A DNA stretch of 64,000 nt from a virus (Duplodnaviria > Caudoviricetes), in IMG/VR virus record IMGVR_UViG_3300037466_002533, positions 1-64,000 of that record; one strand, 5' to 3'. A program made the position numbers and the translations under genes. Positions within the stretch are counted from its first letter, which is position 1, and each line of letters begins with the position of its first letter. Shown piece by piece: positions 17,314-47,881 of this stretch. The notes beneath the pieces are model-generated. The model worked only from the letters and a program-made list of their open reading frames with translations. It did not search any database and had not been told where the DNA came from.

Positions 17314-17483
17314 ACACTTCTCGTGAGTAGCAGGCCTATTTCGCTGGCGACCGACCTGCAGTAATCGCACTGGTCGGTGCCGTGTGGGTAATCATTGACC
17401 TTCAGATGTTTCTTCAGGGAGGCGTTTAGGGCCTTCCTGTTCTTGGTGACCAGCAGCAGTGCCTGGCCCGAGTATACCGCCAT
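17310..17483 (-). CDS. small hypothetical protein (57 aa, CDYC)
   Basis: ATG after GAGG; stop overlaps the ruvC start (ATGA). Confidence 0.5.
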   Translation of the reverse strand: MAVYSGQALLLVTKNRKALNASLKKHLKVNDYPHGTDQCDYCRSVASEIGLLLTRSV

Positions 17484-17493
17484 TTCTCTTACC

Positions 17494-18216
17494 TCATCTC
17501 TTGCCCTCCCAACTACATTGAATCGGGCAGAATTGTCCGTTGCCTGGCAGGCAACACGTCTGGGGAGGATCGTTGTCGGCGATGGCCTTACGAACCCTCT
17601 CCCACTTGCTGTATATCTGGTCCAGCAGCTTGGGCTCCAGGTTGACCCGGACCTCCTTGAGCCGCCAGGGTCTTCCCATCTCCGCTATCAGCACCAGGGA
17701 GGTCTTCAGGCCCAGCTTGTCCATGTACGGATGGAGCTGGTGCACCCAGGACTTGTAGGGGCTGGAGAACCGTTCGAAGCTCATGCTGTTCATGGACTTG
17801 ATGTCCACCAGCTCGCCCTTGAAACGTAGGTCGGCGTGGCCGCGCCAGTGCCGCTCCTCGTCCACCAGCTTGATCTCTACGTCGTCCTCGGTGACCAGCC
17901 CGGCGTGGATTAGCTTCTGCTGGATGACGTGGTGCATCATGGTTCCCATGAGCGGGGTCATGATGCCGGTATAGTCGTCCTGACGCTTCTTCAGTTGTTT
18001 GCGCCGAACCGGGTGGAGCATCTCGTAGAGAGCCCTTTCCCCATACAGCGCATGTGTCGAGGGGTGGAAATAGTCGTCGTCCAGGGAGTCGTGATAGTAC
18101 GGATCGGGGACTGTGAAGTTGTCGGGCCAGGTGGGGTTCAGCAGTGCTGCCTGAACATATGGGGCAACCACCTGCTTTTCCGCCATCAGACGGAACAGTG
18201 CTGATCCATATGCCAT
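17494..18216 (-). CDS. Cas4/PD-(D/E)xK family exonuclease
   Basis: GTMMH, GHAD, VDIKS, QLHPY motifs and C-terminal Cys cluster. Confidence 0.7.
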   Translation of the reverse strand: MAYGSALFRLMAEKQVVAPYVQAALLNPTWPDNFTVPDPYYHDSLDDDYFHPSTHALYGERALYEMLHPVRRKQLKKRQDDYTGIMTPLMGTMMHHVIQQKLIHAGLVTEDDVEIKLVDEERHWRGHADLRFKGELVDIKSMNSMSFERFSSPYKSWVHQLHPYMDKLGLKTSLVLIAEMGRPWRLKEVRVNLEPKLLDQIYSKWERVRKAIADNDPPQTCCLPGNGQFCPIQCSWEGKR

Positions 18217-18567
18217 TTACTTGTCGATGCCCCTCTTGGCCAATTCCATAATCATCAGTAGGTCATCCAACTGAAGAACCACATAGTCCTGTGGGTCGGC
18301 ATTGACGAACCTTACCGGTAACATGAACATCTTACCCAATTCGGCGGCCCTCTGCAACCATTCCGAGAGCATTTCCGAATTGAGCGAGTACGACTTCTTC
18401 TCCGTGCATTTACAGTCGATTATCATGGGGATCGGGTTCAGCCGGTTATGGCCGGTCGATCCGTCACCCGGATCGTTGAACTGATTGCCTGACGCGATGG
18501 TGCTGTTCAGGCCCAGGGCCTCCTGCAGCTCCCTCTCGTGGCGCTGCCAGTTCTTCTCAACTGCCAT
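18217..18567 (-). CDS. small PD-(D/E)xK nuclease, resolvase-like
   Basis: SGNQFNDPGD...IDCKCT. Confidence 0.6.
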   Translation of the reverse strand: MAVEKNWQRHERELQEALGLNSTIASGNQFNDPGDGSTGHNRLNPIPMIIDCKCTEKKSYSLNSEMLSEWLQRAAELGKMFMLPVRFVNADPQDYVVLQLDDLLMIMELAKRGIDK

Positions 18568-37428: not shown

Positions 37429-38586
37429 CTAGTCGCCCTTGATGTTGACGATCTGTCTGAGGACATATCTCACCTCCACCAGATCAGAAGAGTCATTCAT
37501 AACTACTTCGACGTCCTTGTAGGCGTCCGGGTGCTCGTCCAGGAAGGCATCGGACTCGCCCCAAGCGATGCCCTCCATGCGGGCGTCCAGGTCCTCCCGG
37601 GTGAATCTGGACTTGGCCTTCGAGCGGGAGTACTCCCTACCGGCACCGTGCGGTGCGGAATTGAAGGACGACTCGTTGCCAAGCCCCTGGACCACGTAAG
37701 AACGAGTTCCCATGGATCCGGGGATCAACCCCCACTGTCCGGGCTCTGCGTTGATCGCGCCCTTGCGGGACAGCCACACACCATCGCCCAACTTCTCGGT
37801 GTAGTTGTGATGGCAAGAGATGTCCTGACGCCACTGCACGAACTCCCGCCCCATGAACAGGGACAGGGCGAAGGATACCCGGCCCATCATCTCGATCCGG
37901 TTGAGTAGAGCGAACTGCTGTGCCCAGTTGAGAGCTTCGATATAGGAGTCGAACTCGCTGGTTCCCTCCTCCAGATAGGCCAGGTCGCGATTCGGCAGTT
38001 TCTTGCCGTCGCAGAGCTTCTGAGCCACCTCGATGTGCTTCTGGGCCAGCCTGTTGCCCACCCCACGGGATCCGGAGTGCAGGAACATCCACACCCGGTC
38101 ATCCTCGTCCAGGCTGACCTCGATGAAGTGGTTGCCCGAACCCAGGGATCCAAGCTGCAGCCGCCAATTGGGAGATACCTCCTCGGCCTGCTCGATGCCG
38201 GGGAGGGACTCCAGGGCGAAGATCCGGGAGGATTTGGCGCGGCCGGAGGGGCTGTTGTACTTCCCCGCCGACAGCGGGATATCCTTCGAGATAGCTGCAT
38301 GCAGGACACGCAGATCGCCTGCGGCCAGCAGGTCATCGCGCCTGAACTGGGTCAACACCGCGTTCATGCCGCAGCCGATGTCCACACCGACGGCGGCAGG
38401 CATGATCGCGCCCATGGTCGGGATGACGGAGCCTACGGTGGCACCCTTGCCCAGATGGGCATCCGGCATCAGAGCCAGCCAGGGCTGTACGAACGGCATG
38501 GAGGCGGTCTGGAAGGCCTGCTCCAGCGTCTGCGGCGCGATGATCGACGCCCAGTTGAGCAGCTTGTCGTTCAGGATCTGCATCAT
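37429..38586 (-). CDS. rtcB: RtcB RNA 2',3'-cyclic phosphate/5'-OH ligase
   Basis: MPDAHLGKG, VGVDIGCG, LGSGNHF, HSGSRG, HHNY, PGSMG, HGAGR, AYKD. Confidence 0.95.
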   Translation of the reverse strand: MMQILNDKLLNWASIIAPQTLEQAFQTASMPFVQPWLALMPDAHLGKGATVGSVIPTMGAIMPAAVGVDIGCGMNAVLTQFRRDDLLAAGDLRVLHAAISKDIPLSAGKYNSPSGRAKSSRIFALESLPGIEQAEEVSPNWRLQLGSLGSGNHFIEVSLDEDDRVWMFLHSGSRGVGNRLAQKHIEVAQKLCDGKKLPNRDLAYLEEGTSEFDSYIEALNWAQQFALLNRIEMMGRVSFALSLFMGREFVQWRQDISCHHNYTEKLGDGVWLSRKGAINAEPGQWGLIPGSMGTRSYVVQGLGNESSFNSAPHGAGREYSRSKAKSRFTREDLDARMEGIAWGESDAFLDEHPDAYKDVEVVMNDSSDLVEVRYVLRQIVNIKGD

Positions 38587-38610: not shown

Positions 38611-38668
38611 AAGCAAAAGGCCCCTGCGCATTTGAGCATCGTGGAGAGGCTTGGCAGGGGCTCGGTTG

Positions 38669-38738
38669 CTGCCAGGGTAGGTGTCGAACCTACACCACGA
38701 GGGTCAAAGCCTCGCTGCCCTGCCGAGAGCACCTGGCA
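38669..38738 (-). tRNA. tRNA-Gln(TTG), shortened D arm
   Basis: TGCCAGG/CCTGGCA, CGAGG-CTTTGAC-CCTCG, T loop TTCGACA. Confidence 0.8.
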
Positions 38739-38743
38739 ATAGG

Positions 38744-38815
38744 CCGACGCGGCTGGATTCGAACCGAGCTTCCCGAGCTTTGCCACCCGTGGTCCACCAT
38801 GGACTCTTCACGTCG
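38744..38815 (-). tRNA. degenerate tRNA-like gene with 8-nt anticodon loop (TGGCAAAG)
   Basis: CGACGTG/CGCGTCG acceptor, GTCC/GGAC D stem, bulged T stem with TTCGAAT. Confidence 0.45.
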
Positions 38816-38819
38816 CCGG

Positions 38820-38892
38820 AGCCCGAGACCTGATTCGAACAGGCGCTTCCACGTTACGAGGGTGGCGTGCTACCGCTAGACACTACCCGGGC
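38820..38892 (-). tRNA. tRNA-Thr(CGT)
   Basis: cloverleaf, loop CT-CGT-AA. Confidence 0.88.
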
Positions 38893-38893
38893 G

Positions 38894-38967
38894 AGCCCCA
38901 AGCCGAGTATGATTCGGCACCTTCGCTTTACAAGAGCGACGTTCTAGCCGGTTGAAACTATTGGGGC
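38894..38967 (-). tRNA. tRNA-Thr(TGT), T loop ATCATAC
   Basis: cloverleaf, loop CT-TGT-AA. Confidence 0.8.
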
Positions 38968-39053
38968 TAGTGCACGGTGCTCTATCCCCTGAGCTACATC
39001 GCGTCCCATGAGGGATAGCAGGCACGGATTCGAACCGTGCGACCTCCGCGCCG
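38968..39053 (-). ncRNA. circularly permuted tRNA mimic (T arm, capped acceptor region, D arm)
   Basis: CGCGG AGGTC GCACGG TTCGAAT CCGTGC ... TCCC TCAT GGGA ... TA GCTC AGGGGATA GAGC A CCGTG; CCGTG pairs with CGCGG. Confidence 0.7.
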
Positions 39054-39125
39054 AGCCCATGCCGAGATTCGAACTCGGTCTTCCATCGTACCAGGATGGC
39101 GTACCACCAGTAATACTTCACGGGC
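39054..39125 (-). tRNA. tRNA-Thr(GGT)
   Basis: cloverleaf, loop CT-GGT-AC. Confidence 0.88.
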
Positions 39126-39273
39126 CTGCCCCTCTTCGCCCACCCGCTTCCAGGCGCGATGGCGACGATGTCCGACGCGGCTCCTGGACGGCTCATCCGA
39201 GCCAGACGCATCGGTGGATTGGTCGGGGACTCAACCCTCTGGGGTACACTACGGTTGCCGTGCGAGCCCATAG

Positions 39274-39347
39274 TCAGCCACCCGCGAGTCGAACGCGGTA
39301 TCTCTGCAATCCCGATGCAGCGGATTATGCCGTTTTCCCAGTGGCTG
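39274..39347 (-). tRNA. tRNA-Pro(GGG)
   Basis: cloverleaf, loop TC-GGG-AT (C at 33). Confidence 0.75.
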
Positions 39348-39363
39348 GTATTCAGTTATAGCG

Positions 39364-39437
39364 TCGGGATGGCAGGAGTTGAACCTGCTATCTTCCGGAT
39401 CCGAACCGGACGGATTATGCCGTTTTCCCACATCCCG
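39364..39437 (-). tRNA. tRNA-Pro(CGG)
   Basis: cloverleaf, loop TT-CGG-AT. Confidence 0.88.
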
Positions 39438-39521
39438 TTAGCCCGAGGTTTGTCTGGATGGCTTACATCCACCGGCCGCGCCGGAGGGTCATCGCCGCTT
39501 CGCGATCCTCGGATCCCTTCG

Positions 39522-39594
39522 TCGGGGAGGTGGGACTCGAACCCACGTTCTCCTGCCTCCAAAGCAGGCGGCCTTGCCGCTGGCCTACACCCCG
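39522..39594 (-). tRNA. tRNA-Pro(TGG)
   Basis: cloverleaf, loop TT-TGG-AG. Confidence 0.92.
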
Positions 39595-39694
39595 TTAGCC
39601 AGATCCCTGCTAGAGGAGCTGGGTTTCGCCTTAGGTCCGGTCTAGCAGTACGCGCCGGGTTTCAAGCCTCGGCCGCAACCGAACCACGGCTACG

Positions 39695-39769
39695 TGCCCC
39701 CGGCACGATTCGAACGTGCGACCCACTACTTAAAAGGAAGCTGCTCTGGCCAGACTGAGCTACGGAGGC
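39695..39769 (-). tRNA. tRNA-Lys(TTT)
   Basis: cloverleaf, loop CT-TTT-AA. Confidence 0.9.
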
Positions 39770-39785
39770 ATATTAAGTTGTAACG

Positions 39786-39859
39786 CTCCGGTAGAAGGGT
39801 TCGAACCTACAACTTCCTCCTTAACAGGGAGGCACTCTGCCTAGTTGAGTTATACCGGA
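39786..39859 (-). tRNA. tRNA-Asn(GTT)
   Basis: cloverleaf, loop CT-GTT-AA. Confidence 0.92.
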
Positions 39860-39873
39860 ATAACGGTACTGCG

Positions 39874-39947
39874 CCCACCTGGTTCGATTCGAACGAACGA
39901 CATACCCGGCTTCAACGGGTCCCTCTCCCAGACTGAGGTACAGGTGG
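39874..39947 (-). tRNA. tRNA-Phe(GAA)
   Basis: cloverleaf, loop TT-GAA-GC, G73. Confidence 0.85.
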
Positions 39948-40046
39948 TTAGATGTTCACTTATTACATCAACATCTTCTTTAGTGACTTAGGCTGAACCC
40001 CCCAGACGCCAGCTCCTCTATGCGTCTATCTATATCGACTGCCACG

Positions 40047-40132
40047 CGGAAAGCTGAGGTCACGATCCCCAGCCGGTCTCCCGGCCCAACTCTTTAGCAA
40101 AGAGCGCCCACGCCCTGGTGGGTTAACCTTCC
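40047..40132 (-). tRNA. tRNA-Ser(GCT), T loop ATCGTGA
   Basis: long variable arm, loop TT-GCT-AA, G73. Confidence 0.8.
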
Positions 40133-40176
40133 ATGTCAGAAGTTTACCACTTTCGGTAAACTTCCGTCAACTCTAT

Positions 40177-40398
40177 TTAGTTGTCACCGCCGTCTTCGGC
40201 TACGGGGATGGAGATCTTGATATTCAGCCTGTCCTCGGAGTCTCGCCAGACCTCGATCTCCATCTCGTCCAGGACAGGGGTTAGGTCCTCGGAGTCCACC
40301 CTGCTAGCCACTGCGGCCAGGGTCCGGACGATCGCCTCGAACCAATGGTCCTGCTTGTCCTGCTGCAGGACGGAGTGGGCTCTAACCATTGACGCCAT
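40177..40398 (-). CDS. hypothetical protein (73 aa) inside tRNA array
   Basis: ORF filling the gap between tRNAs. Confidence 0.55.
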   Translation of the reverse strand: MASMVRAHSVLQQDKQDHWFEAIVRTLAAVASRVDSEDLTPVLDEMEIEVWRDSEDRLNIKISIPVAEDGGDN

Positions 40399-40421
40399 AT
40401 TAAGTTTCCTTAGTTTTCACG

Positions 40422-40492
40422 AGGGGATGACGAGAATCGAACTCGCGTATTCAGTTTGGAAGACTGACGCTCTACCGTTGAGCTACATCCCC
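40422..40492 (-). tRNA. tRNA-Gly(TCC)
   Basis: cloverleaf, loop CT-TCC-AA. Confidence 0.93.
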
Positions 40493-40630
40493 ATGCTAGC
40501 TGCGTCGATCGACATACGTTCCGCCACCACGGCGGTCGCCACGCCAACCTGCACGCTAGGTGCTGCATCCATAGCCGCCGCCAGTGAATGGGTGGTTGGG
40601 CCGTCCAGTCAGCGGTACACATGGATCGCG

Positions 40631-40702
40631 AGGCCCCGACGTGATTCGAACACGCACATAACAGGGTTGCAGCCTGCTGCCTTACCATTCAGCCACGGGA
40701 CC
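40631..40702 (-). tRNA. tRNA-Cys(GCA)
   Basis: cloverleaf, loop CT-GCA-AC, U73. Confidence 0.92.
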
Positions 40703-40731
40703 ATCATCTAACTATTAAGTTGTACTCGCAC

Positions 40732-40748
40732 ATCATACCATATCTCTT
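40732..40748 (-). promoter_or_regulatory. AAGAGATA-N3-TANNNT promoter in tRNA array
   Basis: minus strand AAGAGATA TGG TATGAT. Confidence 0.5.
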
Positions 40749-40750
40749 TG

Positions 40751-40825
40751 TACCCCAGCCAGGGCTCGAACCTGGACCTTTCGGTTTTTAAGACCGTGCC
40801 ATACTACCAGTTGGGCTACTGGGGC
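40751..40825 (-). tRNA. tRNA-Leu(TAA), short variable loop
   Basis: loop CT-TAA-AA, A73. Confidence 0.8.
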
Positions 40826-40826
40826 G

Positions 40827-40910
40827 CGGAGGCCGGAGGGCACGATCCCCTGCGACTGAACGCTCAACCCGCTTCGAACGGGCGCCTGCCACCTGGCAGA
40901 TTCAGCCTCC
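40827..40910 (-). tRNA. tRNA-Ser(CGA), T loop ATCGTGC
   Basis: long variable arm, loop TT-CGA-AG, G73. Confidence 0.78.
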
Positions 40911-40911
40911 A

Positions 40912-40997
40912 TGGCGGAAAGGCGGAGAATTGAACTCCACGGCTGTTAGACCGCGCTGACTTTCCAGATCAGCTCCGGGACCACCCGGTGCCCTTCC
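40912..40997 (-). tRNA. tRNA-Ser(GGA), CCA encoded
   Basis: long variable arm, loop CT-GGA-AA. Confidence 0.85.
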
Positions 40998-40998
40998 G

Positions 40999-41081
40999 AG
41001 GAGGGTAACAGTAACGATCTGTCAGGCTTGCACCTGGCCGAGTTTTCAAGACTCGCAGCCGGACCTCCGGCACTACCCTCC
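40999..41081 (-). tRNA. tRNA-Ser(TGA), T loop ATCGTTA
   Basis: long variable arm, loop CT-TGA-AA, U73. Confidence 0.75.
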
Positions 41082-41086
41082 GAGCG

Positions 41087-41160
41087 TACTCCTGGCCGGA
41101 TTCGAACCGGCACTGGACGGGACTTGAGACCGTTGCCGCTGCCAATTGGGCTACAGGAGC
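41087..41160 (-). tRNA. tRNA-Leu(CAA), short variable loop
   Basis: loop CT-CAA-GT, A73. Confidence 0.85.
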
Positions 41161-41171
41161 ATTACTGGAAT

Positions 41172-41265
41172 GCCATGTCGGCTCTCACCCGGGTCGAACG
41201 GGCTCCGCCTTGATCAGGGACGAATCGGGAGGGATCAGCTCCACAGCCTAGCTCGCCGACATAGC
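41172..41265 (-). ncRNA. tRNA-like cloverleaf without a normal anticodon loop
   Basis: 11-bp closing stem, AGCT/AGCT arm, TGATC/GATCA arm with 17-nt loop, GCCCG-TTCGACC-CGGGT T arm. Confidence 0.5.
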
Positions 41266-41271
41266 ACGCCG

Positions 41272-41347
41272 TACTCACGGAGGGATTCGAACCCACAACG
41301 CACCGGATCTGAGCCGGAGTCCTCTGCCAAAATTGGGATACGTGAGC
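41272..41347 (-). tRNA. tRNA-Leu(CAG), short variable loop
   Basis: loop CT-CAG-AT, A73. Confidence 0.88.
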
Positions 41348-41370
41348 ATGTTCAGTTCTTGTACTACAAG

Positions 41371-41443
41371 TGCCGCAGACGGGGGTCGAACCCGCATCAT
41401 CCACCTTGAAAGGGTGGCGCCCTGACCATTAGACCACTGCGAC
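41371..41443 (-). tRNA. tRNA-Glu(TTC)
   Basis: cloverleaf, loop CT-TTC-AA. Confidence 0.9.
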
Positions 41444-41444
41444 G

Positions 41445-41517
41445 TACCCCAGGAGGGAATTGAACCCCCGACAGGTTGGATATAAGCCAACTGCTCTCAC
41501 CACTGAGCTACTGGGGC
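41445..41517 (-). tRNA. tRNA-Ile(TAT)
   Basis: cloverleaf, loop CT-TAT-AT, A73. Confidence 0.88.
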
Positions 41518-41673
41518 AAGACGTGCCCGGCGGGATCCATACCGGTCGGGCAAACGCTGCGTCGTCACGGAGGCTACCCGATGAAACGACTGGACCTGCA
41601 GCGACGGACTATCTCCAGCCTTATCCGTCCATGATTAGCTTGGCCCGGAAGCCATCCCGGGTTGCATCTGGAG

Positions 41674-41748
41674 TACTCTCGGAAGGATTTGAACCTTCGC
41701 ATCCCACCTTATCAGGGTGGTGCCTTAACCGGACTTGGCCACGAGAGC
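41674..41748 (-). tRNA. tRNA-Ile(GAT)
   Basis: cloverleaf, loop CT-GAT-AA. Confidence 0.92.
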
Positions 41749-41753
41749 TTGCG

Positions 41754-41826
41754 TACTCCGAGAGGGACTCGAACCCTCGACCCACCGATTAAGAGTCGGT
41801 TGCCTCTGCCGCTGAGCTACCGGAGC
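41754..41826 (-). tRNA. tRNA-Lys(CTT)
   Basis: cloverleaf, loop CT-CTT-AA. Confidence 0.92.
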
Positions 41827-41844
41827 ATGTTCAGTTGTCCTACG

Positions 41845-41918
41845 AGGGGTAGACGGGGTTCGAACCCGCGACCTTCACCTTGGCAAGGTGACGCGCTGAC
41901 CAACTGCGCTACTACCCC
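41845..41918 (-). tRNA. tRNA-Gly(GCC)
   Basis: cloverleaf, loop TT-GCC-AA. Confidence 0.95.
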
Positions 41919-42044
41919 AGTGCAGCCCAAGGGGAGATTCTCGACGCTCACCACGCCATGTGACCATGCGGAGCTGGCCTGGGGCCAGGAGCTGGTCTCG
42001 GCATCGCAGGGAGCTACCCTGATACCGACGTTCAAGGACTGTCG

Positions 42045-42113
42045 AGCCCCCCGAGCGAGTCGAACGCTCCTGCCGAGATTCGTAGTCTCAGCGATGGATC
42101 CGCCATGGAAGGC
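42045..42113 (-). tRNA. tRNA-Arg(ACG), reduced D arm
   Basis: loop CT-ACG-AA, T loop TTCGACT, 69 nt. Confidence 0.72.
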
Positions 42114-42119
42114 ATGTCG

Positions 42120-42338
42120 CTAGAAGGTCTCTAGCTGCTGCTCCGGTAATCTTACTACAGTGATATGACGTTGTCTAGTGCTTATCTCATCCCCGTGAAC
42201 CTGGATCTTGACATTGCCCAGCTCGTCGGTGTCTACGCCGTGAACTCGCCAGTCCTGGTCCCATACCTTGAGGCCGTCGCCGGTCTTCACCCTGCAAGCC
42301 TTCTTGAGCCGTGTCCGTCCCATGTACATGCCGGGCAT
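42120..42338 (-). CDS. hypothetical protein (about 70 aa)
   Basis: ORF filling the gap between tRNAs. Confidence 0.5.
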   Translation of the reverse strand: MPGMYMGRTRLKKACRVKTGDGLKVWDQDWRVHGVDTDELGNVKIQVHGDEISTRQRHITVVRLPEQQLETF

Positions 42339-42385
42339 TGTACCACACCTACCTATTGGTGGCTCCCAAGGGTAGGCACCCTACG

Positions 42386-42455
42386 TACCCGCACTGAGAG
42401 TCGAACTCAGCAACCGAACCTTCGGAGGGTTCGGCGCGCATCCGGCGCTACGGGT
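42386..42455 (-). tRNA. tRNA-Arg(CCG), atypical (no 8-9 connector, 7-bp anticodon stem)
   Basis: ACCCGTA GCGC CGGAT GCGC G CCGAACC CT-CCG-AA GGTTCGG TTG CTGAG TTCGACT CTCAG TGCGGGT A. Confidence 0.7.
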
Positions 42456-42456
42456 C

Positions 42457-42533
42457 TGGCGCCCCAGGCAGGATTCGAACCCGCATCGTCCGTTACGGCT
42501 GAACTGCTTAGAAGACAGTGCCGGTACTGGGGC
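42457..42533 (-). tRNA. tRNA-Arg(TCT), D-armless with long variable arm, CCA encoded
   Basis: GCCCCAG TACCGGC ACTGT CT-TCT-AA GCAGT [18 nt] GCGGG TTCGAAT CCTGC CTGGGGC G CCA. Confidence 0.7.
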
Positions 42534-42538
42534 CAGCG

Positions 42539-42610
42539 TCTCCCAGGAGGGATTCGAACCCCCAACCTAGACGTTAGGACCGTCTTGCTCTTCCGTTGAG
42601 CTACTAGGAG
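42539..42610 (-). tRNA. tRNA-Arg(CCT)
   Basis: cloverleaf, loop GT-CCT-AA. Confidence 0.88.
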
Positions 42611-42617
42611 ATATGAT

Positions 42618-42827
42618 CTACTTGCGGAGCACTATGGCCGCGAAGATCACGACCACGATGGTCAAAACCAGGGCCAGTGCGAATGCTCCCCAGAGCGGGG
42701 CAGTCACCCACCACCAGGACCAGGAGATCACACCGACCAGCTTCAGGACGAGGAACACCACGAAGAGGACGAACCCAACCCCCATGGGCTGAGAGTTGAC
42801 CTTGACCGATATTTCTCCGCTGAACAT
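42618..42827 (-). CDS. small two-TM membrane protein
   Basis: VLFVVFLVLKLVGVISWSWWWVTAPLWG. Confidence 0.75.
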   Translation of the reverse strand: MFSGEISVKVNSQPMGVGFVLFVVFLVLKLVGVISWSWWWVTAPLWGAFALALVLTIVVVIFAAIVLRK

Positions 42828-42852
42828 CTTTCCCTTTTCCTTCTCTTGAGAG

Positions 42853-42927
42853 TGCTCTCGAAGCGATTCGAACGCTCACTGTCAACGATCTCGGCGTTGT
42901 CCCTCTGCCAGATTGGGGTACGAGAGC
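42853..42927 (-). tRNA. tRNA-Leu(GAG), short variable loop
   Basis: loop CC-GAG-AT, A73. Confidence 0.85.
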
Positions 42928-42942
42928 CAGGTTTTCAGTTAT

Positions 42943-43110
42943 TCACCATCGAGACATGGCGTCGAGGTATTCCTCTCGGCCGCACGGAGGGCAGTATACC
43001 ACATAGTTGTACGGTGCGTCGGCGACTTTCTGGGCCTCCTCCGGAGCGAGTTCCCGCAGGACCTTGCCGCAGGACTGGCACTCCAGAACGGCCACCATCA
43101 TCTGGGCCAT
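42943..43110 (-). CDS. small zinc-ribbon protein (55 aa)
   Basis: GGAGG RBS, CQSC...CPPC. Confidence 0.65.
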   Translation of the reverse strand: MAQMMVAVLECQSCGKVLRELAPEEAQKVADAPYNYVVYCPPCGREEYLDAMSRW

Positions 43111-43314
43111 GGGGCACCTCCACTCTTGTTGTGGCACGGCAGATTCGCTTCTCGCGGGGTCTCCCCTTGTGGGAGAGAATGCCCAATCCACTTCACCGTG
43201 CCCGGCTCTTTCGCCGTCTGCCACTTGAGTTCGTAGACTGACTACATCCGGCTGGCTAGACCGGACCAAGCCATTCCGATGGCCTGATACCCAAAGGGGC
43301 CTAGTTGCGCCCCG

Positions 43315-43388
43315 TGCTCCCGAGGCGATTCGAACGCCCACTGGCCAGGATCTAAGCCTGGTGCCTCTGCCAATTGGGCTACGGGAGC
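43315..43388 (-). tRNA. tRNA-Leu(TAG), short variable loop
   Basis: loop CT-TAG-AT, A73. Confidence 0.9.
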
Positions 43389-43394
43389 TTTCGT

Positions 43395-43637
43395 TCAGAC
43401 CAGGACGGACTCGGCCAGGGACCTCTGGAACTTGCGCTGCGAGTCCCGGAGGTTGCGCTTGCCGTCGACGTTCCAGCGGGGCCCGACCGGGATGAAGTTT
43501 CCGGTCTTGAGGACAATGACACCGTAGTGCGATCCTCGTGGGCGACTCTTCTGGACGTGAGCTTCTGACCTGAACTTGATATGCTCGCCACGCTTGGTAC
43601 GGGCGACCCAGATGACATCCTTGATCTTGGCGGACAT
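43395..43637 (-). CDS. basic hypothetical protein (80 aa)
   Basis: AGGAG RBS, ORF. Confidence 0.6.
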   Translation of the reverse strand: MSAKIKDVIWVARTKRGEHIKFRSEAHVQKSRPRGSHYGVIVLKTGNFIPVGPRWNVDGKRNLRDSQRKFQRSLAESVLV

Positions 43638-43690
43638 TTGAAGGTCTCCTCATTCGTTGTGTCCGGCTTTCTTACCCGGATCCTACGATG

Positions 43691-43707
43691 AGTGTATCCT
43701 ATCTTTT
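43691..43707 (-). promoter_or_regulatory. AAAAGATA-N3-TANNNT promoter
   Basis: minus strand AAAAGATA GGA TACACT. Confidence 0.6.
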
Positions 43708-43719
43708 TCATCGATCCAA

Positions 43720-44031
43720 CTAGGCGTGAGACAGCTCGTGAGCCTCCAGGTCGGTGGGGTCCAGGTCGACCCGGGCCTTCTGTTTGCCCCCGGACCAGCT
43801 CAACACGATGCGGATGGGGCACTCCACCTGAGCCCCGCACGTCAGACAGTTGATGAGCACGAAAGTCTTTGGTGCACGGTCCATCTCGGGCTTCAGAACC
43901 AGGGCGTAGTGGGCGGCGAAGATGCTGCGATAGTCCTGGTTGTCCTCGGACTTGCTCTTACGCCACTGCGACCCTGCCCAGAACGCCAGGACGGACAAGA
44001 GGACCATGAACACGGCTAGCGTCGGGATCAA
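43720..44031 (-). CDS. membrane-anchored protein with CLTC motif
   Basis: N-terminal hydrophobic helix. Confidence 0.6.
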   Translation of the reverse strand: MIPTLAVFMVLLSVLAFWAGSQWRKSKSEDNQDYRSIFAAHYALVLKPEMDRAPKTFVLINCLTCGAQVECPIRIVLSWSGGKQKARVDLDPTDLEAHELSHA

Positions 44032-44038
44032 AGCGATA

Positions 44039-44086
44039 CCCCCTCGGCTACAGGATTCCTATTTATTAGGCCTGCAGCCGAGGGGG
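44039..44086. terminator. strong hairpin downstream of the Ro gene
   Basis: CCCCCTCGGCT(A)CAGG...CCTG(C)AGCCGAGGGGG. Confidence 0.5.
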
Positions 44087-44139
44087 CTCGTATTAGCTGG
44101 TACGGCTATTGTACCCTCATACGGTACGATAGCCGACGA

Positions 44140-45801
44140 TCAGGACTCCCAGGGCCAGCTTCCGAATCCAGCCGCCTCGATGTTCTGCATCATGGCGAAC
44201 GCCGAGTCGGTCAAGCCTCCGACCGCGTAGAAGTTCCCGCGACCCTGCGGCGCATGAGCCGCCTGGTACCCGGCGACGTTGAACGTGAAGGTCGTGACAT
44301 CGGCGGGAACCACGTCCGGCAGGGACTTGCCGTAGTAGTCGGCCTGCTCGTCGGTGACGATCACCAACCGGTTGACGGCGCCTCGGAACCGACGCAGCAA
44401 CGTCTCGGCGACCTGAACGGTCCTGGTGCCTCCGGCGATGGGTAGCTCCTTGTAGAACCTCTGAATGTTGGACAGCAGCGAGGCGCTGTAGTCCACCGTG
44501 AACGGATCAGACCGGTCGTCGTAGGCGAACACCACGGCGTTCTCCGCACGCAGCGCCAGGGCCAGGCCGAAGGCCACTGCGTTGTCGTACCGGCTCACGG
44601 TTGAGTTGCCCGAAAGGAGGTCACTCATCGATCCGGAACGGTCGATCATCACCAGGGTGTCACCGGACAGCTCCGGCACCGAGCGCAGGGAGATGTCCAG
44701 GGCCTTGGACAGTGCTGGCTCCCACAGCTTGCGGTACTTGGGCTGTACGGCCTCCGACACAGTCCGGAGTCCGTAGTACCCGGCGGGCTGCGGAGCGACG
44801 GCGCGGTACGCGGACAGGAACCGCAGCGGGAGCTGCCTGGACGACAGCACCGCCTCCTCATCAGCGATCTTCTCGGCCACGAACTTGGCGTAGGAGTCCG
44901 AGATTCCGGCCTTTGCGAAGTTGCGGAGGTTGCGGATCAGCGCCATGTACCCCATGTTCGGGATCACGGACTCCCAGAAGGTCGCGGTCAACTCACCACC
45001 GAACCAGGATGCCAGGGACTCCCAGGTGTGTCCGGCGAGCCGGGCGGCATCCGGGTGATCCTTCAGGAACGCCTCACGTTCCTCCCGAGGGATGTCCGCC
45101 ATGACCTGGCGGTCGACCAGCGTCGTTAATCCCTGGTATCTGGATAGGTCGACGTTGTCGTATCGGCGATCCTGCGCGTAGGCGAAAACCGCTGCCTTGT
45201 AGGGGCTGTCGGTAGTGTCGACCTGAGACAGGGAGATGACGTCGCCGAAACGGATTGCGGCGCCCTGAGAGTCGTACTTCAGGACCGACTTCTCGTTGTA
45301 CAGGGCCTTCGCGGCATCACCCAGGGCGCGCTTGAACCACTTGGGCAACGGCTTGCCGTAGTTGGCCAGCCAATAGCCCAGGGCCTCGCTCGGCTCGTCG
45401 GCGCGCTGCAGCACGGAGCGTAGCACGGCACGAGGGGTGAGGCTGTCGAACGGAGCACGCCCGCTGACCGTCCGGCCATACTCGATGGCGCCGGTGATCG
45501 CGGCGGTGCGGATGTTCCCGCTGGTGCGCAGCCAGGAGAGGAAGTTGGCCACCCACTCCGGGTCGGCCTTTGCCACGGAGCGAATCAACTCGACGTAGCG
45601 GCTGTCGCGAGCCTCGGCGGACTCGTAATAGGTATCCTGGCCGGTGAAGTTGGTGACCCCCAGGAGGAACAGGGCGGACTTCTCGGCGTACGCGAATCCC
45701 TTGCCGCCGTTGCCGGTCGGCACGTCGGACTTCGGGGACGCGGTCAGCACCGAGGTGTTGCCACTCGGCGCGGTGCGCACGTTCTTGGTGAAGCGAGCCA
45801 C
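44140..45801 (-). CDS. rsr: Ro60/TROVE-domain RNA-binding protein with vWA domain
   Basis: GNIRTAAI, YDSQG, GYMALIRNLRN, SRQLPLRFLSAY TROVE motifs; IDRSGSMS and IVTDEQ vWA MIDAS; start reset to GTG 45801 after GGAGG. Confidence 0.92.
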   Translation of the reverse strand: MARFTKNVRTAPSGNTSVLTASPKSDVPTGNGGKGFAYAEKSALFLLGVTNFTGQDTYYESAEARDSRYVELIRSVAKADPEWVANFLSWLRTSGNIRTAAITGAIEYGRTVSGRAPFDSLTPRAVLRSVLQRADEPSEALGYWLANYGKPLPKWFKRALGDAAKALYNEKSVLKYDSQGAAIRFGDVISLSQVDTTDSPYKAAVFAYAQDRRYDNVDLSRYQGLTTLVDRQVMADIPREEREAFLKDHPDAARLAGHTWESLASWFGGELTATFWESVIPNMGYMALIRNLRNFAKAGISDSYAKFVAEKIADEEAVLSSRQLPLRFLSAYRAVAPQPAGYYGLRTVSEAVQPKYRKLWEPALSKALDISLRSVPELSGDTLVMIDRSGSMSDLLSGNSTVSRYDNAVAFGLALALRAENAVVFAYDDRSDPFTVDYSASLLSNIQRFYKELPIAGGTRTVQVAETLLRRFRGAVNRLVIVTDEQADYYGKSLPDVVPADVTTFTFNVAGYQAAHAPQGRGNFYAVGGLTDSAFAMMQNIEAAGFGSWPWES

Positions 45802-45821
45802 GATGTTCCTCCACTGGGTTG

Positions 45822-45894
45822 GGTTCCGATATAAGGGTGGGATCGGTTGGGTTTCCATTATGAGTGAAGTAACCGAACCCAGCACACCGGAACC
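45822..45894 (-). ncRNA. minimal Y RNA (YrlB-like, no tRNA domain)
   Basis: GGTTCC GGTGTG ... GTTACTTC ... TTATATC GGAACC; same terminal motifs as the two adjacent YrlA. Confidence 0.7.
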
Positions 45895-45906
45895 GATGTC
45901 ACGAGT

Positions 45907-45924
45907 AGTGTAGCACAATCTTTT
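45907..45924 (-). promoter_or_regulatory. AAAAGATT-N4-TANNNT promoter for minimal Y RNA and rsr
   Basis: minus strand AAAAGATT GTGC TACACT. Confidence 0.55.
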
Positions 45925-45932
45925 TGCATGGC

Positions 45933-46071
45933 GGACAGATATAGAGGCGGCCTTGGTCTTTCGTCAGCCCGCTCTACCACTTGAGCTACCAGCCCCGAAA
46001 TGGAACTGGACGGGATTCGAACCCGCAACCTAGCTGGTTCATAGAAGTATCCATGACCTGCGCACCTGTCC
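45933..46071 (-). ncRNA. yrlA: YrlA-type Y RNA 1
   Basis: GGACA GGTGCG...GATACTTC...GCGGG TTCGAAT CCCGT CCAGTTCC ATTTC GGGGCTGG TA GCTC AAGTGGTA GAGC...TATATC TGTCC. Confidence 0.88.
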
Positions 46072-46083
46072 TACCAGGTAGCT

Positions 46084-46214
46084 GAGCAGATATAAGTCGC
46101 ACGAGGAAATGTTAGCGCTCTGCCATTGAGCTACCGCCCCATTGGAGCGGCCGGGACTCGAACCCGGATCTCTCTGTTCATAATCAGAAGTAACCTCGAA
46201 CTACGCACCTGCTC
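46084..46214 (-). ncRNA. yrlA: YrlA-type Y RNA 2
   Basis: GAGCA GGTGCG...GTTACTTC...CCGGG TTCGAGT CCCGG CCGCTCC AAT GGGGCGG TA GCTC AATGGCA GAGC...TTATATC TGCTC. Confidence 0.88.
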
Positions 46215-46301
46215 TGGTGAGGATGGAGGGATTCGAACCCCCTAAGCCAATGGCGGCGCGGTTACGGCGCGCTACGACCACTCCATCGTCGTCGCATCCT
46301 C
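46215..46301 (-). tRNA. tRNA-Tyr(GTA), CCA encoded
   Basis: long variable arm, loop CC-GTA-AC, A73. Confidence 0.82.
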
Positions 46302-46451
46302 AGATTCACCGCTTGACCTGCCATACCGTTGCGCAATACGAAGGCAGTATCTTCATGTCTCCTCAAACCAGTCGGGGACGACACTTCTGGCCCTGCCCTG
46401 GCTGACATTGACTGGCTAGTTATCGCAGGCCGCAGGCGGTGAAGGCCATAG

Positions 46452-46524
46452 CACGGGTGACAAGATTCGAACTCGCAACCAACGACTTTGGAGATCGCTG
46501 CTCTCCCAATTGAGCTACACCCGT
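46452..46524 (-). tRNA. tRNA-Trp(CCA)
   Basis: cloverleaf, loop CT-CCA-AA, G73. Confidence 0.92.
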
Positions 46525-46553
46525 ATATGTTCTCTGTTGAGTTGTCTTGTGAC

Positions 46554-46570
46554 AGCCTACGCTATCTCTT
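46554..46570 (-). promoter_or_regulatory. AAGAGATA-N3-TANNNT promoter
   Basis: minus strand AAGAGATA GCG TAGGCT. Confidence 0.5.
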
Positions 46571-46754
46571 ACCTGTCCGCAACCAGCTTTTCGAGCTGGC
46601 TCGGGTCGGTGGCCTTCGAGTGATTGTCTCCCCGGTACCGGACGAACACCCAGGTGTTGTTGACCGAGGTGATGACCCCGTCCTCCCTGGAGCCGTTGCC
46701 GTTCTTGTACACAACTCCGGCGCCCAGGAGGCTCTTGGCCTCTTCGATCGTCAT
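46569..46754 (-). CDS. hypothetical protein (61 aa)
   Basis: GGAGGAG RBS. Confidence 0.65.
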   Translation of the reverse strand: MTIEEAKSLLGAGVVYKNGNGSREDGVITSVNNTWVFVRYRGDNHSKATDPSQLEKLVADR

Positions 46755-46778
46755 AGCTCCTCCATGCGATCTTCCTAG

Positions 46779-46853
46779 CGATTCGTACGGGATTCGAACC
46801 CGTGTTCTCCACCGTGACAGGGTGGCGCTTTCGGCCAGCTAAGCTAACGAACC
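46779..46853 (-). tRNA. tRNA-Asp(GTC)
   Basis: cloverleaf, loop CT-GTC-AC, G73. Confidence 0.93.
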
Positions 46854-46854
46854 T

Positions 46855-46928
46855 TGGGGTGGCCGGACGGTAATGATCCGTCTTCCCCGCAGTCACAGTG
46901 CAGTGCATTACCTTTATGCTACGGCCAC
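46855..46928 (-). tRNA. tRNA-His(GTG), T loop ATCATTA, CCA encoded
   Basis: loop CT-GTG-AC, C73; encoded -1 base is T. Confidence 0.82.
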
Positions 46929-46930
46929 AG

Positions 46931-47002
46931 TACCGGTACCCTGAGTCGAACAGGGGCACGGAGGGTATGAGTCTCCTGCTCTCGCCACTGAGCTATACCG
47001 GC
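46931..47002 (-). tRNA. tRNA-Met or Ile2 (CAT)
   Basis: cloverleaf, loop CT-CAT-AC. Confidence 0.85.
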
Positions 47003-47036
47003 ATATGTAGTTGTAATTTCCTGCGACTTAATTGCG

Positions 47037-47109
47037 CTGCCCCCGAAGGATTCGAACCTCCACCCAAGACATTCAGAATGTCCGACACTGCCGATTATGC
47101 TAGAGGGCA
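47037..47109 (-). tRNA. tRNA-Gln(CTG)
   Basis: U1-A72, loop TT-CTG-AA, G73. Confidence 0.88.
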
Positions 47110-47125
47110 CTGTTCAGCTATGTAG

Positions 47126-47199
47126 TGGCGGGGGCCAGATTCGAACTGACGACCTTCAGCTTATGAGGCTGACGAGCTACCGAGCTGCTCTACCCCGCA
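47126..47199 (-). tRNA. tRNA-Met(CAT), initiator-like
   Basis: U1-C72 mismatch and fMet-type D arm GAGCAGCTCGGTAGCTC. Confidence 0.85.
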
Positions 47200-47364
47200 T
47201 TGATCTGGAGCCTTCCTTTACAGGGCGCTCCAGCATACCCCGGCCGCAGTGCGGTGATCTTCCGCAGTAACGGACTTTGATCGATGGCTTCGTCCCCAGA
47301 TGCCTTTTCGCTAAGTGGCACCATGATATGGGGATAACCCAACCATCGATCCTCTTTGGTGTGG

Positions 47365-47374
47365 ATTCTACACA
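47365..47374 (-). promoter_or_regulatory. extended -10 element
   Basis: minus strand TGTG TAGAAT upstream of the structured spacer at 47205-47345. Confidence 0.4.
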
Positions 47375-47391
47375 GTTCGAACCCTAACCAG

Positions 47392-47460
47392 TGGAGGATA
47401 CCGGAATCGAACCGGTCTAGGGACCGTGCAAAGGTCCCGTGATTTCCCAGATCATCCCCC
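47392..47460 (-). tRNA. tRNA-Ala(TGC), reduced D arm
   Basis: G3-U70, GGGACC-TTTGCAC-GGTCCC, 69 nt. Confidence 0.78.
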
Positions 47461-47563
47461 GGGGAACAGCTATTAAGTTAGGAACGTCACCACATGCCTA
47501 CTAGGATAGCCAACATCAAAATGGATCTCAGCGGATCATCCTAAGCACTATTCAGTTGTCGAG

Positions 47564-47634
47564 CACCCCATGGCGGTTACGATCCGCCTCCGCCTGACTG
47601 AGAATCAGGAAGACTGCCATTATCCGAATGGGGC
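47564..47634 (-). tRNA. tRNA-Glu(CTC), T loop ATCGTAA
   Basis: loop TT-CTC-AG. Confidence 0.8.
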
Positions 47635-47808
47635 TTGTTGTGCCGGTCGAGCGGGCCTGGTAGGCGGCCAACCACCGGCACTAGGGTAGGAATCCGGACC
47701 CTATCCGGCCCTTCCCCCAGCCACTGCCGCCCCGGCTACCACCCCGGTTTAGCATTTCCATGGGAGCAGTTTATGTCGAAAGACGACAGTTCCATACTCC
47801 AGGGAACG

Positions 47809-47881
47809 TACACCCGGCAGGACTCGAACCTGCGATAAGCTGTGTGTAAAACAGCCGCCTTAGCCGCTAGACGACGGGTGC
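47809..47881 (-). tRNA. tRNA-Val(TAC)
   Basis: cloverleaf, loop TT-TAC-AC, A73. Confidence 0.9.

Follow-up and report, generated by a model that had tools for sequence, protein, structure and literature searches.

A tRNA body in permuted order, flush between two tRNA-Thr genes of an actinobacterial phage that encodes Ro60, Y RNAs and RtcB

The closest described system is the tRNA-like domain of the Y RNA YrlA (RF02553; PMC4201824; bioRxiv 10.1101/312249), in which the T arm comes before the D arm, the nucleotides of the tertiary contacts are retained and a stem at the position of the anticodon stem is formed from the 5′ and 3′ parts of the RNA. A tRNA origin of Y RNAs was proposed by Chen et al. 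2014 (PMC4201824) and Wang et al. 2018 (bioRxiv 10.1101/312249), the steps of which have not been observed. The same order of arms is present at every junction of tandem tRNA genes, where T arm, acceptor 3′ strand, discriminator, short spacer, acceptor 5′ strand and D arm follow one another, and such junctions are the class of false positives named for YrlA searches by Chen et al. 2014 (PMC4201824). Finally, the circularly permuted tRNA genes of Cyanidioschyzon merolae and other algae, as outlined by Soma et al. 2007, begin with the 3′ half, followed by the 5′ half, and their termini come together in a loop of the mature cloverleaf.

Here we analyze an element of ~85 nt on the minus strand of a phage genome (positions 38968–39053), in which the 3′ half of an arginine-type tRNA is followed by a 5′ half. 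The element is real and derives from tRNA: its halves make up a permuted tRNA body, and its free ends meet at the position of the anticodon loop. With the YrlA domain it shares the arm order, the tertiary-contact nucleotides, the stem closed by both ends of the RNA and a D arm identical to that of many bacterial YrlA modules, as well as its context, the phage itself encoding Ro60, Y RNAs and RtcB. It differs from YrlA in that a Ro-binding motif or handle is absent, the T stem is 6 bp long and not of the conserved sequence, the acceptor-like stem-loop is not closed (3/7 vs. 5–7/7 positions paired), and the element borders tRNA genes directly, with no long terminal helix, at a distance of 5.1 kb from Ro60 (20 bits with the YrlA model vs. 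a cut-off of 69). Its layout and its arms are those of tandem tRNA-Arg pairs from metagenomes, yet it lacks the outer half of either tRNA, its truncated ends are complementary to each other over 6 bp and it stands alone between two unrelated, complete tRNAs. Like the algal genes outlined by Soma et al. 2007, it has its 3′ half upstream and termini that meet in a cloverleaf loop; unlike them, it forms no acceptor stem, is not recognized as a tRNA after re-joining and resides in a bacterial virus, the required splicing endonuclease not having been reported in bacteria.

The window analyzed covers the initial 64 kb of an IMG/VR record of 88.8 kb from an uncultured actinobacterial phage, with ~60% G+C and genes on the minus strand. 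ARAGORN called 37 tRNA genes in 38668–47881, most of them confirmed by Rfam. Further genes encode a CCA-adding enzyme, DnaE, DnaB, primase and RecA, and an HD protein is encoded in the island that surrounds the element, the main features of which are the following.

37429–38586, minus strand: rtcB, 385 aa, 382 nt downstream of the element (Pfam PF01139, E = 9e-105)
38893–38967, minus strand: tRNA-Thr(TGT) (ARAGORN; Rfam 49.3 bits)
39053–39125, minus strand: tRNA-Thr(GGT), with no encoded CCA (ARAGORN; Rfam 48.8 bits)
44140–45918, minus strand: Ro60/TROVE gene, 592 aa (Pfam PF05731, E = 5e-16)
45940–46214, minus strand: two tandem YrlA-type Y RNAs directly upstream of Ro60 (Rfam YrlA model, 37.1 and 36 bits)

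The island of Ro60, Y RNAs, RtcB and tRNAs is real and matches both the bacterial rsr-yrl-rtcB operons and the Ro60-encoding mycobacteriophages (PMC4201824). In each of the two Y RNAs of the phage, an acceptor-like hairpin of 7 bp fits flush between the T arm and the D arm, and a second hairpin, resembling an anticodon arm, precedes the T arm; the tRNA body is opened where the D arm would lead into the anticodon arm. An ARAGORN call of tRNA-Arg(tct) at 46002–46080 (minus strand) is actually part of the second Y RNA. The RtcB of the phage is 65–68% identical to that of Geodermatophilus, Blastococcus and Modestobacter, a similarity at the sequence level that hints at a host among the Geodermatophilaceae or at capture of the gene from that lineage.

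Several gaps and calls of the array are themselves unusual. Between the last tRNA (Gln-UUG) and the start codon of rtcB lies a full-length abiF RNA motif (RF03085; 38622–38658, minus strand) that scores 51 bits against a cut-off of 37, is present as a single copy in the 88.8-kb record and has no match in any of 14 control genomes. This motif is normally located upstream of abortive-infection abiF genes, and the phage copy could be a mimic of an antitoxin or regulator. The gap at 40998–41085 (minus strand, 88 nt) takes a cloverleaf shape. Its outer stem has 8 bp and its first arm 5 bp; an anticodon-like arm with UGA (Ser) in its 7-nt loop, an extra arm and, at the T position, an arm whose loop is atypical complete the fold. 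Probably this is a type II tRNA of non-canonical form that neither ARAGORN nor Rfam detected. Structured spacers with long outer stems, each with a T-arm-like hairpin in a non-T position, occupy 40826–40911 and 41161–41270 (both minus strand), and overlapping calls at 42385–42549 (minus strand) comprise a tRNA-Arg(UCU)-like unit that lacks a D arm and has a long variable arm and an encoded CCA, together with the next tRNA-like unit. The Thr cluster is flanked on one side by a degenerate, cloverleaf-like piece of 79 nt with a bulged acceptor and an imperfect T stem (38739–38817, minus strand) and on the other by a 147-nt gap that holds a T-arm look-alike without C56 (39126–39272, minus strand).

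The element fills its own gap exactly: by the ARAGORN and Rfam coordinates, tRNA-Thr(GGT) ends at 39053/39054 and tRNA-Thr(TGT) starts at 38967. In the direction of transcription its parts are as follows.

39052 and 39053, minus strand: unpaired 1–2 nt, 5′ of the closing stem (sequence reading)
39046–39051, minus strand: closing stem, 5′ strand, which corresponds to the anticodon stem's 3′ strand; 6 bp with 38972–38977, one of them G-U
39041–39045, minus strand: variable-loop equivalent, 5 nt, bearing G46 and C48 (reading; alignment to the variable loop of tRNA-Arg)
39022–39040, minus strand: T arm with a 6-bp stem, perfect by reading, and a canonical 7-nt loop
38997–39021, minus strand: centre of 25 nt, made of acceptor 3′ strand (7), discriminator (1), spacer (10) and acceptor 5′ strand (7)
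39004–39015, minus strand: mini-hairpin within the centre, 4 bp with a 4-nt loop, flush with neither arm
38995–38996, minus strand: U8-A9 (sequence reading)
38979–38994, minus strand: D arm of tRNA-Arg type, with a perfect 4-bp stem and an 8-nt loop containing G18 G19 A20 A21 (reading)
38978, minus strand: A26 (sequence reading)
38972–38977, minus strand: closing stem, 3′ strand, which corresponds to the anticodon stem's 5′ strand (pairing with 39046–39051)
38968–38971, minus strand: single-stranded 3′ tail of 4 nt, its end being the RNase P site 5′ of tRNA-Thr(TGT) as predicted from the known cleavage site

As read from the sequence, the nucleotides of the tertiary contacts are all in place (U8-A14, G15-C48, G18/G19 with the T loop, U54-A58 and C13-G22-G46), and the nucleotides left over at the two ends, 5 + 2, make up a 7-nt loop at the anticodon-loop position. 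The D arm is identical to D arms in tRNA-Arg genes and in bacterial YrlA modules; the T stem is 1 bp longer than in tRNA-Arg and in the YrlA modules and family consensus. A sequence-only reading that preceded this work had placed the T arm, the D arm, the 5-nt variable loop and the CCGTG and CGCGG strands at these minus-strand positions, had let the two strands pair as an anticodon-like stem whose loop is the free ends, had noted the exact filling of the gap between the two tRNA-Thr genes and had found the Ro-binding stem absent. All of this is confirmed. Its further claim that the topology is that of YrlA is right as far as the permuted tRNA body is concerned, but the element is opened in the anticodon loop, unlike the phage's own Y RNAs.

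What did not stand is the hairpin-capped, imperfect acceptor region that the same reading had seen in the centre. Only 3/7 of the outer centre positions pair, while ~2.6 are expected by chance, and all that is formed is the detached 4-bp mini-hairpin; in the Ro60-linked YrlA-type modules of this and other phages, by comparison, 5–7 of the 7 positions pair (n = 13, ten of them with 7/7). The centre of the element has no acceptor-like helix. A centre composed of 7 + 1 + 10 + 7 nt without complementarity of its strands is what two different tRNA genes show where they adjoin, and this is the deciding point for reading the element as a relic. The alternative named beforehand as a refutation, two tRNA halves that remain from neighboring genes, fits the centre better than a purpose-built mimic does. 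Nor does folding single out the tRNA-like form: RNAfold gives it −32.7 kcal/mol, 2 kcal/mol short of the preferred structure, which reaches −34.7 kcal/mol by pairing the D loop with the centre and destroys the D arm. With a z-score of −1.39 against shuffled sequences, which is not significant, thermodynamic stability was rejected as a sign of function.

We found no relative of the element in any of the collections searched. The 801-nt neighborhood had no blastn match among 50,697 phage records, and the T arm with its variable loop had none in 185,579 species genomes. The exact pattern of T arm and D arm matched seven IMG/VR loci, all ordinary tandem tRNAs; a looser pattern of the architecture matched nothing in IMG/VR and 25 loci in JGI metagenomes, all of them either bacterial YrlA modules or tandem tRNAs with tRNA-Arg in second place. 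For the proteins of the phage, the best identities in IMG/VR viral contigs are 61% for RtcB and 39% for Ro60, with RtcB reaching 72% on a 48-kb ENA contig (P0002). For DnaE no relatives were found in IMG/VR viral contigs, and the best match among cultured phages was that of Rhodococcus phage E3 (47%). The closest Ro60 among cultured phages is that of Streptomyces phage BRock (38%), which has an island of the same type (8640–9115 and 17347–18426) with three consecutive Thr tRNAs in its tRNA array, two unannotated YrlA-type modules just upstream of the Ro-like gene and an ATP-type RNA ligase instead of RtcB.

Other Ro60 phages were compared by scanning for a T arm followed by a D arm within 12–45 nt (161 sources, 1.84 Mb, 795 tRNAs) and by close inspection of the Ro60 neighborhoods of BRock, Atuin, VanLee and Ro60-encoding IMG/VR contigs, about a dozen phages. 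In the neighborhoods inspected, permuted modules outside called tRNAs occurred only beside the Ro60 gene. The element is the sole orphan among the modules compared, being far from Ro60, flush between tRNAs and paired in its centre at the level of chance. On metagenome contigs many bacterial YrlA modules have a D arm that is letter-identical to that of bacterial tRNA-Arg, and in the tandem-tRNA matches to the D-arm pattern from metagenomes the second tRNA was tRNA-Arg in 8/8. Judging from such sequence similarity, YrlA's tRNA-like domain may descend specifically from tRNA-Arg.

Considering the arm order and the setting of the element, it could be viewed as a third YrlA-type Y RNA that binds the phage Ro60. 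It lies on the strand of the Ro60 gene, within the same island, and the YrlA model (RF02553) aligns weakly over its full length with 20.0 bits (E = 0.18 in the 801-nt search; span 38945–39065). The gathering threshold of 69 bits, moreover, is missed not only by the element but also by the accepted Y RNAs of the phage (36–37 bits). However, the outer stems of that alignment are taken from the acceptor strands of the flanking Thr tRNAs, with many mismatches, and the score falls inside the range of 10–30 bits that plain tandem tRNAs in another phage's array obtain with the same model, which at E up to 1 finds matches in 13 of 14 control genomes. In the search with YrlA and tRNA models that had been proposed as a check, the tRNA model gave nothing at the element. 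Of the YrlA traits, the T arm followed by the D arm and the conserved tertiary-contact nucleotides are present, whereas the closed acceptor-like stem-loop between the two arms is absent. No Ro60-binding motif or handle, no terminal stem and no GNCGAA-type motif 5′ of the T arm was found at the element, and the handle motifs common to both Y RNAs of the phage occur only at 45873–46211 and nowhere else in the array. By the criterion of Chen et al. 2014 (PMC4201824), a Y RNA is encoded on the strand of its Ro60 gene and no more than 4 kb away from it; the strand is the same, but the Ro60 ORF lies 5,088 nt upstream in the direction of transcription. The element is opened at the anticodon loop, while the Y RNAs of the phage keep an anticodon-arm-like hairpin, and we consider its membership in this family very unlikely. 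A recent copy of the phage's own Y RNAs was likewise rejected as its source, the point of permutation being different and the similarity to them (34 and 46) lower than that to tRNA-Arg (64–75).

A further alternative is a genuine tRNA gene, permuted as in Cyanidioschyzon, the ends of which would be ligated, with RtcB as the suggested enzyme, and the centre opened to give a working tRNA. The order of the halves, the rebuilt 7-nt loop and an rtcB gene 382 nt downstream are in line with it. It is already contradicted by the inner strands, which pair at 3/7 positions and form no acceptor stem. Neither ARAGORN nor the Rfam tRNA model made a call covering 38968–39052, the latter even at E up to 10, and when the natural ends were joined and the centre opened, ARAGORN recognized none of the 26 resulting versions as a tRNA; the rebuilt loop has A instead of U at position 33, and a splicing endonuclease of the kind required has not been reported in bacteria (literature). 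The element cannot mature to a working tRNA, and this alternative deserves next to no credence.

The end chemistry of the RNA points the same way. RNase Z cleaves CCA-less precursors behind the discriminator, and RNase P acts at the 5′ end of the tRNA that follows; both leave 5′-phosphate and 3′-OH ends, whereas RtcB joins a 3′-phosphate or 2′,3′-cyclic phosphate to a 5′-OH. A promoter or terminator was sought inside the element and none was found, so the element should be transcribed together with the tRNA array. Cleavage by RNase Z after tRNA-Thr(GGT) and by RNase P before tRNA-Thr(TGT) would then free an RNA of ~85 nt with a 5′-phosphate and a 3′-OH, able to form the closing stem with an intact elbow of T loop and D loop. 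The release by processing of the flanking tRNAs that had been suggested earlier is therefore reasonable as an inference, but the suggested role of the RNA as a substrate of RtcB is not, because its ends would be wrong for this enzyme, and circularization by RtcB is unlikely. If folded as a tRNA body, the RNA would expose an intact elbow on a stem of 6 bp that ends in a 3′ overhang of 4 nt, and would lack an acceptor arm.

The descent of the element was approached by aligning each half separately to 316 unique tRNAs from loci that had not been chosen by their arm pattern. The 3′ half matched best to tRNA-Arg(UCU) and the best five matches of the 5′ half were all tRNA-Arg; with the halves re-joined, the top four of the 316 were again all tRNA-Arg (UCU, UCU, ACG and ACG), from Ro60-encoding phages. 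Scores of Arg tRNAs exceeded those of all others in this set (Mann-Whitney p = 3e-6). Summed over the halves, tRNA-Arg reached 64–75 compared with 33–57 for phage YrlA modules, the two of this phage having 34 and 46. Among loci selected by the D-arm pattern, on the other hand, a bacterial YrlA module had a summed score of 87 vs. 76–80 for tandem tRNA-Arg junctions. Since YrlA bodies are themselves Arg-like, similarity alone leaves descent from YrlA possible. Tandem tRNA-Arg pairs from metagenomes contain the same string of T arm, spacer and D arm. The complements of both acceptor strands were sought across the array and no matching half was found, by which a split tRNA with its other halves elsewhere in the array was rejected as well.

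Cumulatively, these findings suggest that the element is probably a relic or "proto-Y RNA". We read it as a gene fragment of tRNA-Arg type in circularly permuted order, which is not a tRNA and not a Y RNA either, and hold it to be about an even call that it arose as a by-product of tRNA-gene turnover. It would represent what is left of two neighboring tRNA-Arg genes around their junction, each cut back to its anticodon loop and now abutting a tRNA-Thr gene, with the 3′ half of one arginine-type tRNA, a spacer of ~10 nt and the 5′ half of the second. As the halves would come from related genes of two Arg isoacceptors, the strands of their anticodon stems would still pair and close the element, and as the acceptor strands would come from different genes, they would not pair. 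That both halves are independently closest to tRNA-Arg is consistent with this relic, and so are the degenerate tRNA-like pieces in the neighboring gaps (39126–39272 and 38739–38817) and the lack of both a tRNA call and an orthologue in any collection searched. Yet the relic needs two truncations, each in an anticodon loop and each flush with a complete tRNA, and that the leftover loop nucleotides sum to exactly 7 is unexpected from two independent random deletions. Complementarity at 5/5 positions of the corresponding stem strands was seen in just 5 of 70 real tandem tRNA pairs of any kind (7%), and the element has 6 bp. The flawless arms, closing stem and tertiary nucleotides call for either a very recent origin or selection, the outer halves are absent from the array, and a bacterial YrlA module matches at least as well as the tandem junctions do. 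A single site-specific event or selection would explain the truncations, the sum of 7 and the missing outer halves better than two random deletions, and for this reason we leave the relic at no better than an even balance.

Part of the same evidence may be read in favor of a functional tRNA-elbow mimic without a handle, which tRNA processing would excise and which would fold as an L-shaped body, resembling a tRNA-Arg nicked in its anticodon loop and competing for a factor that senses the tRNA elbow or a break in the anticodon loop, e.g. a host tRNA-targeting nuclease, a damage sensor or ArgRS. The perfect T arm, D arm and closing stem, the complete tertiary contacts, the 7-nt total of the ends and the rarity of the closing complementarity among tandem-tRNA controls (7%) all count in favor of such an RNA, and the island holds Ro60, two Y RNAs, RtcB, an HD protein and a CCA-adding enzyme. 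The ends left by metal-dependent PIN/VapC nucleases, 3′-OH and 5′-phosphate, are the same as those left by RNase P and RNase Z. Work on YrlA has, in addition, proposed an unknown effector that binds the elbow (bioRxiv 10.1101/312249). Against a mimic stand its single occurrence, with no orthologue in the collections searched and hence no covariation, the dozen or so other Ro60 phages in which permuted modules lie only beside Ro60 and all have an acceptor-like helix of 5–7/7, and a tRNA-like fold that is not of minimum energy (z = −1.39). The folded RNA could conceivably compete for elbow-binding factors. We regard a functional mimic as possible but rather unlikely. Its narrower form, a Ro60-independent mimic of tRNA-Arg nicked 3′ of the anticodon that ordinary tRNA processing would cut from the phage tRNA operon and that would divert a host tRNA-targeting nuclease, or a sensor of tRNA damage, as decoy or competitor, appears improbable; the decoy for anticodon nucleases or their sensors that the sequence-only reading had envisaged gains no support from our data, there being no orthologue to show conservation and the acceptor pairing being at chance. 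Most likely the element has no dedicated function, an inference, like its origin and its processing, from what is shown here of its anatomy, its affinity to tRNA-Arg and its lack of an acceptor helix and of handle motifs, and a relic of tRNA-gene shuffling is more likely than a proven decoy.

Keeping in mind that a single sequence with no relatives found can bear modest weight, the element matters in different ways under the different readings. If the decoy were true, it would constitute a new class of phage counter-defense RNA that evolved independently of the Y RNAs of the same genome. Should the RNA prove to be expressed and stable, it would stand as the first mimic of the tRNA elbow to lack a Ro60 handle, placed in a phage island for tRNA supply and repair, and would offer a simple way to reach the unknown factor that reads the elbow of YrlA and tRNA. 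If the element is only a relic, one genome shows finished Y RNAs together with their presumed raw material, a T arm joined to the D arm of the next tRNA.
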